Shown: positions 55,688 through 57,920 of the stretch, in pieces | Position numbering within the stretch: the stretch's first letter is position 1 | Layout: every line of letters starts with the position of its first letter | Assembly (NCBI RefSeq): GCF_003018255.1 | Contig: NZ_CP027440.1 | From: Escherichia coli | GTDB taxonomy: Bacteria > Pseudomonadota > Gammaproteobacteria > Enterobacterales > Enterobacteriaceae | Reading direction: 5' to 3' (one strand) | DNA length: 64,000 bases | The notes under the pieces: generated by a model | Seen by the model: only the letters and a program-made list of their open reading frames with translations | Databases searched by the model: none | What the model was told of the DNA's origin: nothing | Position numbers and translations under genes: made by a program

Positions 55688-55774
55688 ATGCGCAATTTGC
55701 AGCCCAACATGTCACGTTGGGCTTTTTTTGCGAAATCAGTGGGAACCTGGAATAAAAGCAGTTGCCGCAGTTAA
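55688..55774 (+). CDS. fruL: small ORF upstream of cra (28 aa, [28 protein letters not shown]); possibly the annotated leader peptide
   Basis: Short ORF read by hand (below the ORF-track cutoff); I recall a K-12 annotation fruL at this position but cannot verify it. Confidence 0.3.
55701..55729 (+). terminator. rho-independent terminator after ilvH (agcccaacatgtcacgttgggct plus T7)
   Basis: 8-bp stem (gcccaacg / cgttgggc) with 7 Ts read about 25 nt after the ilvH stop. Confidence 0.75.
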
Positions 55775-55855: not shown

Positions 55856-56860
55856 GTGAAACTGGATGAAATCGCTCGGCTGGCGGGAGTGTCGCGGACC
55901 ACTGCAAGCTATGTTATTAACGGCAAAGCGAAGCAATACCGTGTGAGCGACAAAACCGTTGAAAAAGTCATGGCTGTGGTGCGTGAGCACAATTACCACC
56001 CGAACGCCGTGGCAGCTGGGCTTCGTGCTGGACGCACACGTTCTATTGGTCTTGTGATCCCCGATCTGGAGAACACCAGCTATACCCGCATCGCTAACTA
56101 TCTTGAACGCCAGGCGCGGCAAAGGGGTTATCAACTGCTGATTGCCTGCTCGGAAGATCAGCCCGACAACGAAATGCGTTGTATCGAGCATCTTTTACAG
56201 CGTCAGGTTGATGCCATTATTGTTTCGACGTCGTTGCCACCTGAGCATCCTTTTTATCAACGCTGGGCTAACGACCCGTTCCCGATTGTCGCGCTGGACC
56301 GCGCCCTCGATCGTGAACACTTCACCAGCGTGGTTGGTGCCGATCAGGATGATGCCGAAATGCTGGCGGAAGAGTTACGTAAGTTTCCCGCCGAGACGGT
56401 ACTTTATCTTGGCGCGCTGCCGGAGCTTTCTGTCAGCTTCCTGCGTGAACAAGGTTTCCGTACTGCCTGGAAAGATGATCCTCGCGAAGTGCATTTCCTT
56501 TATGCCAACAGCTATGAGCGGGAGGCGGCTGCCCAGTTATTCGAAAAATGGCTGGAAACGCATCCGATGCCGCAGGCACTGTTCACAACGTCGTTTGCGT
56601 TGTTGCAAGGGGTGATGGATGTCACGCTACGTCGTGACGGCAAACTGCCTTCTGACCTGGCAATTGCCACCTTTGGCGATAACGAACTGCTCGACTTCTT
56701 ACAGTGCCCGGTGCTGGCAGTGGCTCAACGTCACCGCGATGTCGCAGAGCGTGTGCTGGAGATTGTCCTGGCAAGCCTGGACGAACCGCGTAAGCCAAAA
56801 CCTGGTTTAACGCGCATTAAACGTAATCTCTATCGCCGCGGCGTGCTCAGCCGTAGCTAA
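55856..56860 (+). CDS. cra: catabolite repressor/activator (LacI family)
   Basis: 334-aa ORF, GTG start, [34 protein letters not shown]... Confidence 0.96.
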
Positions 56861-57380
56861 GCCGCGAACAAAAATACGCGCCAGGTGAATTTCTCTCTGG
56901 CGCGTTGAGTACGGGAATGGACATCAATATCCTTAAAGTAAATAAGACTATTCCTGGCTATTATTGATAAATGCTTTTAAACCTGCCCGTTAATTACCTC
57001 ACCAGCTGAAATTCACAATAATTAAGTGATATCGATAGCGCGTTTTTGCATTATTTTGTTACATGCAGAGATGAATTGCCGATTTAACAAACACTTTTCT
57101 TTGCTTTTGCGCAAACCCGCTGGCATCAAGCGCCACACAGACGCAACAGGGACTGTTAACCGGGGAAGATATGTCCTAAAATGCCGCTCGCGTCGCAAAC
57201 TGACACTTTATATTTGCTGTGGAAAATAGTGAGTCATTTTAAAACGGTGATGACGATGAGGGATTTTTTCTTACAGCTATTCATAACGTTAATTTGCTTC
57301 GCACGTTGGACGTAAAATAAACAACGCTGATATTAGCCGTAAACATCGGGTTTTTTACCTCGGTATGCCTTGTGACTGGC

Positions 57381-57442
57381 TTGACAAGCTTTTCCTCCGC
57401 TCCGTAAACTCCTTTCAGTGGGAAATTGTGGGGCAAAGTGGG
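57381..57442 (+). promoter_or_regulatory. mraZ promoter (-35 ttgaca at 57381) and MraZ operator: three direct gtggg repeats at 10-bp spacing (57418, 57428, 57438)
   Basis: Consensus -35 hexamer and triple gtggg repeat read directly upstream of mraZ; matches published MraZ autoregulation sites. Confidence 0.7.
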
Positions 57443-57461
57443 AATAAGGGGTGAGGCTGGC

Positions 57462-57920
57462 ATGTTCCGGGGAGCAACGTTAGTCAATCTCGACAGCAAA
57501 GGGCGCTTATCAGTGCCTACCCGTTATCGGGAACAGCTGCTTGAGAACGCTGCCGGTCAAATGGTTTGCACCATTGACATTCATCACCCGTGCCTGCTGC
57601 TTTACCCCCTGCCTGAATGGGAAATTATCGAGCAAAAATTATCGCGTCTGTCGAGCATGAACCCGGTTGAGCGCCGTGTGCAGCGCCTACTGTTAGGTCA
57701 TGCCAGCGAATGTCAGATGGATGGCGCAGGTCGATTGTTAATCGCGCCAGTACTGCGGCAACATGCCGGGCTGACAAAAGAAGTGATGCTGGTTGGACAG
57801 TTCAACAAGTTTGAGCTGTGGGATGAAACAACCTGGCATCAACAGGTCAAGGAAGATATCGACGCAGAGCAGTTGGCTACTGGAGACTTATCGGAGCGAC
57901 TGCAGGACTTGTCTCTATAA
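57462..57920 (+). CDS. mraZ: division/cell-wall cluster transcriptional regulator
   Basis: ORF 57426..57920; start taken at [27 protein letters not shown] (152 aa). Confidence 0.95.

Follow-up and report, generated by a model that had tools for sequence, protein, structure and literature searches.

A second conserved promoter and a DNA block at fixed distance from Pmra in the cra-mraZ spacer of Escherichia coli

Introduction

What does the long spacer between cra and mraZ, the gene at the head of the essential dcw operon, hold besides the known main promoter Pmra? We addressed this question in Escherichia coli, using a stretch of 64,000 nucleotides (nt) of contig NZ_CP027440.1 (RefSeq assembly GCF_003018255.1), referred to as the window throughout, in which cra occupies 55856-56860 and the ATG of mraZ lies at 57462. 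The spacer contains a second conserved sigma-70-type promoter, here called P2, which lies about 230 bp upstream of Pmra, is directed at mraZ and is active in published data. Between the two promoters lies a conserved block, block C, whose distance to Pmra is fixed.

A sequence-only reading of the window had described a 602-bp spacer that was mostly unassigned, with an obvious role only for the last 80 bp or so, which hold the TTGACA -35 element of Pmra and three GTGGG repeats. It had also pointed to an inverted repeat right after cra and to two short open reading frames (ORFs), and had suggested that the region could hold additional promoters or an unannotated small RNA (sRNA). These features all lie where that reading had placed them, and the inverted repeat has fully complementary 9-nt arms (56876-56884 and 56897-56905); the length was off by one, since 56861-57461 amounts to 601 bp. 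The spacer of K-12 is also 601 bp long (89033-89633; the offset between the window and K-12 was verified base by base), and 12 of the 13 single-nucleotide differences between K-12 and the window are located before 57150. No feature is annotated within the spacer in the RefSeq records of K-12 or of strain FDAARGOS_497, which is 100% identical to the window over the spacer. The term "mostly unassigned" therefore fits the annotation, but not the published high-throughput data described below.

The spacer is present in a single copy in 5,422 of 5,426 complete E. coli genomes, and its identity over the whole length reaches at least 99% in only 707 of 5,423. Three spacer matches in this search fall on records labelled as plasmids, which are probably mislabelled or chimeric assemblies.

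Conservation of the spacer

Species-representative genomes were scanned with MraZ, which gave 80 Enterobacteriaceae loci. We analysed the 77 loci with cra directly upstream of mraZ and left out two without cra sequence and one with a partial cra match. Spacer length in these loci ranges from 553 to 733 bp, with a median of 601. The four-fold degenerate sites of cra and mraZ from the same genomes served as the neutral yardstick; their identity to E. coli averages 0.48, and none of 100,000 resamples of 20 sites rose above 0.75.

Conservation beyond this neutral expectation, the check proposed with the sequence-only reading, was found in three blocks upstream of Pmra, termed A, B and C (Table 1), in addition to Pmra, the operator and the ribosome-binding region (identity 0.8-0.98). 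At the cra side, positions 56861-57040 show an identity of 0.15-0.5, at or below neutral, with many insertions and deletions, and the first ~290 bp of the spacer evolve at or below the neutral rate. Constraint begins about 310 bp upstream of mraZ, with weaker conservation up to about 415 bp, so that an obvious role cannot be confined to the last 80 bp. Block B, which spans a -10 element, its discriminator and the first ~27 transcribed nt, is the strongest of the three; it occurs once, without any difference, in 5,379 of 5,423 E. coli genomes (99.2%).

For a deeper sampling, upstream regions from Yersinia, Serratia, Pectobacterium, Dickeya, Erwinia, Pantoea and Photorhabdus were aligned. Block A is restricted to the Enterobacteriaceae and is absent from Erwinia and the more distant genera. 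Erwinia and Pantoea retain TAAAATGCCGC..CGTCGCA of block B at the same distance, as well as the core of block C. In Yersinia, Serratia, Pectobacterium, Dickeya and Photorhabdus, no block B can be recognised, and the block C core is kept in all five. The block C core is thus independent of block B.

The distal promoter P2

The hexamer TAAAAT at 57177-57182 is present in 77 of 78 species, CTGTTA (57153-57158) precedes it by exactly 18 nt in 63, and no species has an insertion or deletion here. More specifically, the alignment shows a conserved CTGTTAAY, then ten free bases, and then invariant sequence from ATGTCC through TAAAAT to GCCGC. Such a pattern, in which the 18-bp spacer is free in sequence and fixed in length, is characteristic of a -35 region followed by a spacer and a -10 element. 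The -10 hexamer matches the consensus at five of six positions, including A at position 2 and T at position 6, and scores 7.8 bits with a position weight matrix (PWM).

Before any expression data were consulted, the invariant TAAAAT had led us to predict a transcription start at about 57189-57191. Cappable-seq of K-12 then gave 57188, located 5 nt after the -10 element and behind the G+C-rich discriminator GCCGC. The plus-strand starts mapped in the K-12 spacer are 89143 (score 6.2), 89237 (2.1), 89360 (9.4) and 89590 (27.2), so that the signal of P2 is about one third of that of Pmra. Furthermore, the reporter tiling study of Urtecho et al. assigns two minimal promoters to the mraZ operon, 89317-89357 and 89547-89587, and a figure legend of that study states that the mraZ region "shows two distinct promoters". 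The first of them runs from just upstream of CTGTTA to just beyond TAAAAT. The suggestion of additional promoters is hence borne out for one block, which is an active promoter in two independent published datasets. P2 is present in both of these public high-throughput datasets, yet it is unnamed, unannotated and undiscussed in the literature that we searched.

The two remaining Cappable-seq starts are weaker. The start at 56971 (K-12 89143) lies behind TATTAT (56959-56964), which is poorly conserved, and the weak start at 57065 (K-12 89237) falls at the end of block A, which contains a -10-like TATTTT at 57052-57057. A PWM scan for minus-strand promoters that could explain the blocks found nothing convincing. 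The SMRT-Cappable-seq table searched contains no entry for mraZ.

A G+C-rich discriminator, an 18-bp spacer and a weak -35 element are traits of promoters sensitive to guanosine tetraphosphate (ppGpp) and growth rate. P2 has a GCCGC discriminator, an 18-bp spacer and a weak -35 element, and on this basis it may be under stringent or growth-rate control. On the downstream side, a scan found no intrinsic-terminator-like site anywhere in the spacer, including the part from 57188 to mraZ. Given that no terminator follows P2, a mraZ-dcw transcript with a long leader is expected, and read-through into mraZ would be the simplest reading.

Block C and its fixed distance to Pmra

The core of block C, TCA-N5-TTAAT, occupies 57281-57293, and a run of six T (57264-57269) ends 11 nt upstream of the TCA. 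In all 85 Enterobacterales compared, which represent several families, the core, in the form TCA-N5-TTA(A/T)T, is found 99-102 bp upstream of the Pmra -35 element, and the intervening DNA is poorly conserved. Among 79 species, the distance from the distal -10 element to the block C core is 102-105 bp and that from the distal -10 element to the Pmra -35 element is 202-207 bp. The distance from the cra stop codon to the distal -10 element, in contrast, varies between 261 and 449 bp. The two promoters thus delimit a module of constant length, with block C at its midpoint. Constant spacing relative to a promoter element reflects the DNA itself and speaks for a site bound by a protein; block C is most likely a DNA site for an architectural or regulatory protein.

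As to the protein, the residues TCA-N5-TTA, invariant across the order, coincide with positions that the IHF consensus WATCAANNNNTTR specifies. The Yersinia sequence TATCATGACGTTA matches eight of the nine consensus positions, a quality that is expected by chance in 600 bp. Strong IHF sites carry an upstream A/T run, and a run of at least four A/T was found 10-16 nt upstream of the TCA in ten of ten aligned genera. IHF is our best guess for the putative binder of block C, as a lead rather than as a test.

Other regulators were considered for blocks A-C. The known consensus sites of PurR, Cra, TrpR, ArcA, OmpR, Fur, Zur, LexA, CpxR, RcsB, Fis, DnaA, SlmA and PhoB misfit the conserved positions. 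A DnaA-box-like sequence between blocks B and C, TTTTCCACA (57218-57226, minus strand), matches TTWTNCACA and was set aside, as it is not conserved outside Escherichia. Literature searches with the block sequences and with the term cra-mraZ retrieved nothing.

Interpretation and alternatives

Taken together, the downstream ~310 bp of the spacer are probably functional, with P2 directed toward mraZ and block C as a DNA site between the two promoters. In this model, the hairpin at the 3' end of cra would be followed by ~290 bp of nearly unconstrained DNA and then by P2, consisting of CTGTTA, 18 bp, TAAAAT, GCCGC and the start at 57188. Transcripts from P2 would read through Pmra into mraZ and give a mraZ-dcw mRNA with a leader of 274 nt beside the short-leader mRNA from Pmra. 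Block C, held in a fixed position relative to Pmra, would bind its architectural or regulatory protein between the promoters.

Several observations weigh against this model. The -35 element of P2 matches the consensus at only three of six positions and stays below the threshold of a consensus scan, although 63 of 77 species retain its sequence, and the start is a T merely 5 nt past the -10 element. Two less sensitive start-site maps call only Pmra and not P2, which makes P2 minor under the conditions tested. In strain 4/4, a human faecal isolate, an IS5 element is inserted at CTAA (57176-57179; junction ...CACCTTCC|CTAAAATGCC) and separates the -35 region of P2 from the -10 element; as this isolate is viable, native P2 is dispensable. 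Rho-dependent termination in the untranslated leader is possible. For block C, the E. coli sequence ATTCATAACGTTA matches seven of nine IHF consensus positions, which amounts to about 8 bits by a rough PWM estimate, and matches that good are expected several times per 600 bp by chance; the literature searched (mraZ, IHF, chromatin immunoprecipitation) contained no IHF binding data for block C. Furthermore, the conservation of block C in the Enterobacteriaceae is wider than the IHF core and is not explained by a bend site, and the invariance of block B reaches 27 nt into the transcript, which a promoter does not explain. As a separate observation, the insertion in strain 4/4 is the only case of IS5 in P2 among the matches listed from the 5,423 genomes.

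Two alternatives assign blocks B and C a joint role. In one of them, which we regard as unlikely, the blocks would pair over a long distance within the leader RNA of P2 and form a helix that closes a 5' domain of ~113 nt; the leader would then regulate mraZ-dcw in cis, as an RNA comparable by position and length to the UpsM leader of Rhodobacter sphaeroides. Positions 57190-57204 are indeed complementary to 57288-57302 through the pairings GCG/CGC, GCAAA/UUUGC and UGAC/GUUA, which are used by the minimum-free-energy fold of E. coli 57188-57320 and by the folds of nearly all species. Furthermore, 93.8% of cells are paired, the pair 57190:57302 occurs as G-C (14), G-U (13) and A-U (5), and every one-sided change is wobble-compatible on the plus strand. 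The ribosome-binding site of mraZ is predicted to be less open in the long than in the short transcript in 64 of 77 species (0.24 versus 0.35), in a comparison without a length-matched control. However, RNAalifold returned no consensus structure for 35 representatives (-0.62 kcal/mol, four local pairs), the fold is no more stable than shuffled sequences (z -0.83 and -0.40), and the closing helix is just as frequent when the interiors are shuffled (0.81 versus 0.81). Changes on both sides occur in only two of 12 pairs, one of them in a single sequence, and between 7 and 33 of 500 shuffles reach the observed measures, for a structure that was derived from one of the sequences. The phylogenetic distribution also argues against a helix, since Erwinia and Pantoea retain both blocks with the UUUGC partner gone from block C, and five genera keep the block C core with no block B, at a fixed distance to the Pmra -35 element that is a property of DNA. 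The other alternative takes the same complementarity as an inverted repeat, GCAAAYTRAC, recognised by one sequence-specific regulator that would loop the DNA and shut off P2; we give it still less credence than the RNA helix. The 64-kb window contains no match to it beyond the two copies at 57195-57204 (plus strand) and 57288-57297 (minus strand), whose centres are 93 bp apart; block B takes in +1 to +27 of P2, where repressors typically bind, and the constant distance from the distal -10 element to the block C core would suit such an arrangement. However, 22 of 100 shuffles contain at least two matches, the repeat amounts to the RNA helix in another form and is weak for the same reason, the block C copy being lost in the Erwiniaceae. 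The 5,423 E. coli genomes hold no other copy of block B or of the GCAAAYTRAC site elsewhere, and no regulator is known whose consensus fits.

It is highly improbable, in our judgement, that P2 drives a free-standing sRNA or a small protein encoded in the spacer, such as MTMRDFFLQLFITLICFARWT. The promoter and its start at 57188 are real and could serve such a gene. However, a search of 56500-57800 against Rfam 15 gave nothing at E<=10, the loci of seven other species yielded no match at gathering score, and the Term-seq tables searched show no 3' end from K-12 83641 to 89783. With no terminator-like site and no consensus RNA structure either, the proposed unannotated sRNA finds no support. The two ORFs of the sequence-only reading find no support as genes either: the plus-strand ORF is intact in E. 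coli alone, the spacer-internal part of the minus-strand ORF is interrupted by stop codons in most species, and no spacer ORF has a Pfam match above threshold (counts in Table 1). A hydrophobic peptide of 21 amino acids (aa) across block C was considered as well, since in many genera the frame reads as a hydrophobic core, FFLQIF(I/M)TLIC, in which several substitutions are conservative. We rejected it on frame, start codon and synonymous sites. Enterobacter lacks the start codons, and 1-nt insertions or deletions in block C shift the frame in Buttiauxella and Trabulsiella. The third codon positions in block C are as invariant as the first and second, compared with 0.48 at neutral four-fold sites, which places the constraint on nucleotides and not on protein. 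The longer 44-aa ORF across blocks B and C has its ATG (57181) upstream of the transcription start.

Other features of the locus

The coordinates of the features are collected in Table 1.

Table 1 Features of the cra-mraZ spacer in window coordinates
Feature	Position	Strand	Remarks
Hairpin, ACGCGCCAG / CTGGCGCGT	56876..56905	+	16 nt past the cra stop codon; perfect 9-bp stem, 12-nt loop
Fast-evolving, length-variable part	56906..57045	no strand	Identity 0.15-0.5 versus 0.48 neutral
ORF, 67 aa	57026..57229	+	Intact in 1 of 78 species, only E. coli
Block A, TTGCATTATTTTGTTACATG	57046..57066	+	Identity 0.76 in 20-nt window; neutral resample maximum 0.75
Distal promoter P2	57145..57185	+	Equals published 41-bp minimal promoter K-12 89317-89357 (reporter tiling table, Urtecho et al.)
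Block B, ATGTCCTAAAATGCCGCTCGCGTCGCAAACTGACACTTTATATTT	57171..57215	+	Identity 0.95-0.97 across 77 species, as high as Pmra
ORF, 44 aa, spans blocks B and C	57181..57315	+	Intact in 2 of 78; ATG upstream of start site
P2 transcription start	57188	+	Cappable-seq, K-12 89360, score 9.4; 274 nt upstream of mraZ ATG
ORF, 21 codons, MTMRDFFLQLFITLICFARWT, last part of 44-aa ORF	57250..57315	+	Intact in 4 of 78
Block C, TTTTTTCTTACAGCTATTCATAACGTTAATTTGCTTCGC	57264..57302	no strand	Identity 0.85-0.90
ORF, 72 aa	57281..57499	-	Spacer-internal part without stops in 20 of 78
Pmra, known main dcw promoter	57381..57410	+	TTGACA 57381-57386, 18-bp spacer, TAAACT 57405-57410
MraZ operator, three GTGGG direct repeats	57418..57442	+	10-bp period, beginning at Pmra start site

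The hairpin behind cra is most likely a terminator or a stabilising stem-loop at the 3' end of cra, to judge from its position. Seven of its nine pairs are G-C, and in its context it reaches -21.5 kcal/mol (z = -1.87), a stability that 9 of 200 shuffles also attain. A hairpin of -8 kcal/mol or lower within 40 nt of the cra stop codon was found in 76 of 78 species, with unrelated sequences, and a position conserved without sequence is what a terminator or 3' stabiliser shows. Several genera carry a canonical T-tail, as in Enterobacter soli (GGGCCGTGAAAACGGCCC-TTTTTT). In E. coli, the stem is followed by TGAGTACGGG, without a U-tract, and the terminator scan finds no site, so that the E. coli hairpin is a non-canonical terminator at best; the opposite strand has a T-run after the stem (ATTTTTGTT). 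No Term-seq 3' end was found at K-12 8906x-8910x, nor any entry for cra, in tables that list only stronger ends.

The transcription start of Pmra, K-12 89589/89590 or window 57417/57418, agrees in three datasets, and the minimal promoter in the reporter tiling table is 89547-89587. Pmra is conserved throughout the Enterobacterales. The GTGGG repeats at 57418 (-44 from the ATG), 57428 (-34) and 57438 (-24) are the operator of MraZ. Their assignment to MraZ follows established knowledge, reportedly from Eraso et al. in 2014, and papers describing MraZ back it. GTGG repeats are kept across the Enterobacterales, and none occurs in blocks A-C. Many genera outside Escherichia-Citrobacter-Klebsiella carry about ten extra bases after the third operator repeat, ahead of the ribosome-binding site of mraZ (~57445-57450), and the distance from the Pmra -35 element to the ATG is 91 bp in those genera versus 81 bp here.

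A CRP-like sequence, TGTGACTGGCTTGACA (57371-57386, plus strand), overlaps the Pmra -35 element and matches TGTGA-N6-TCACA at nine of ten positions. It is not conserved; the TGTGA half is not kept in Klebsiella or Yersinia. A genomic SELEX (systematic evolution of ligands by exponential enrichment) study of CRP lists mraZ among its targets, by name only. The probe of a reported PdhR gel shift (weak) maps to the area of the Pmra -35 element (57361-57404), outside blocks A-C. In the PPTP-seq paper, mraZ appears only as a lost single guide RNA. Inside mraZ, window position 57611 (K-12 89783) is both a plus-strand Cappable-seq start (score 1.7) and an internal Term-seq 3' end, and Kim et al. give a start at 89701, which they assign to rsmH.

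Two further observations concern the neighbourhood of the spacer. In Yersinia, Serratia, Pectobacterium and Dickeya, alaE (L-alanine exporter, PF06610) lies between cra and mraZ on the opposite strand, and the divergent region left upstream of mraZ is ~870-920 bp long; the gene is missing at this place in the Enterobacteriaceae, the Erwiniaceae and Photorhabdus. Upstream of cra, the RefSeq record of FDAARGOS_497 annotates the coding sequence of a fruR/shl operon leader peptide (87 nt, window 55688-55774, plus strand). This coding sequence is no longer in the K-12 record and overlaps the hairpin and T-run of the ilvH terminator (~55700-55730).

Comparison with known systems

P2 and Pmra (mraZ1p) share their strand, their target operon, a sigma-70-type layout with an 18-bp spacer, and minimal promoters of 41 bp in the same reporter study. 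Unlike Pmra, P2 lies 230 bp further upstream, has a weak -35 element and a G+C-rich discriminator, gives about one third of the Cappable-seq signal and has no GTGGG repeats of its own. P2 is limited to the Enterobacteriaceae and Erwiniaceae, whereas Pmra is found throughout the Enterobacterales.

Tandem promoters are known from the ilvGMEDA operon of E. coli, where ilvPG1 and ilvPG2 are ~70 bp apart and IHF binding has been demonstrated. The mraZ region resembles it in having two promoters of the same direction and an upstream IHF-type bend site that could set their relative use. In contrast, the promoters here are 230 bp apart, the site lies at the midpoint, and IHF is suggested by a match of seven to eight of the nine consensus positions. 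The stringently controlled rrnB P1 promoter has the sequence TATAAT-GCGCC, a 16-bp spacer and an imperfect -35 element, TTGTCA. P2 resembles it in its G+C-rich discriminator (TAAAAT-GCCGC), its non-optimal spacer length and its imperfect -35 element (CTGTTA). Unlike rrnB P1, P2 has no UP element, as the region upstream of its -35 element is G+C-rich and unconserved, has an 18-bp spacer and shows modest activity; its sensitivity to ppGpp and DksA is putative.

Among leaders, a parallel in layout is known from the dcw cluster of Rhodobacter sphaeroides (Weber et al. 2016, PMC5089854), where mraZ has a long leader of 268 nt that contains the sRNA UpsM, compared with the predicted 274 nt here, and a promoter well upstream. 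The UpsM transcript terminates Rho-independently within the leader and builds up as an sRNA that depends on Hfq (PMC5089854), whereas no terminator-like site or 3' end was found here. The long-leader promoter is the only one tested for mraZ in Rhodobacter (PMC5089854), whereas P2 is a minor second promoter. Weber et al. describe such leaders as restricted to the Rhodobacteraceae, with only a short leader in E. coli (PMC5089854). UpsM and the E. coli leader have no sequence relationship.

Implications

What appears to be new here is that P2 is conserved, that block C is deeply conserved and that the 100/204-bp geometry is invariant; these are observations of a familiar kind, and not a new kind of biology. 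Their practical value is real, if modest. P2 merits a name and an annotation, block C is a precise target for footprinting, and deletion or replacement constructs with an end less than 310 bp from mraZ lose conserved elements.

How the output of the dcw operon, from mraZ through ftsZ, is matched to growth is still debated, and Pmra and MraZ are the only elements considered in models of its head region. P2 adds an unexplored control input atop this essential operon. It has been conserved throughout the history of the Enterobacteriaceae and Erwiniaceae and has features like those of stringent promoters, and block C is older and fixed 100 bp from Pmra. The stretch of about 204 bp from the distal -10 element to the Pmra -35 element is invariant in length, with half of its sequence free, and we raise as a speculation, with only a small chance of being right, that it is a conserved regulatory device. 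In such a device, a protein-induced bend at the midpoint, at block C, would set the two promoters face to face and switch between the short-leader and the 274-nt-leader dcw mRNA in response to growth rate or the stringent response, with the invariant first 27 nt as a further control through RNA or an operator. If true, this switch would supply an input, looked for over decades, that couples the essential division operon of enterobacteria to growth.

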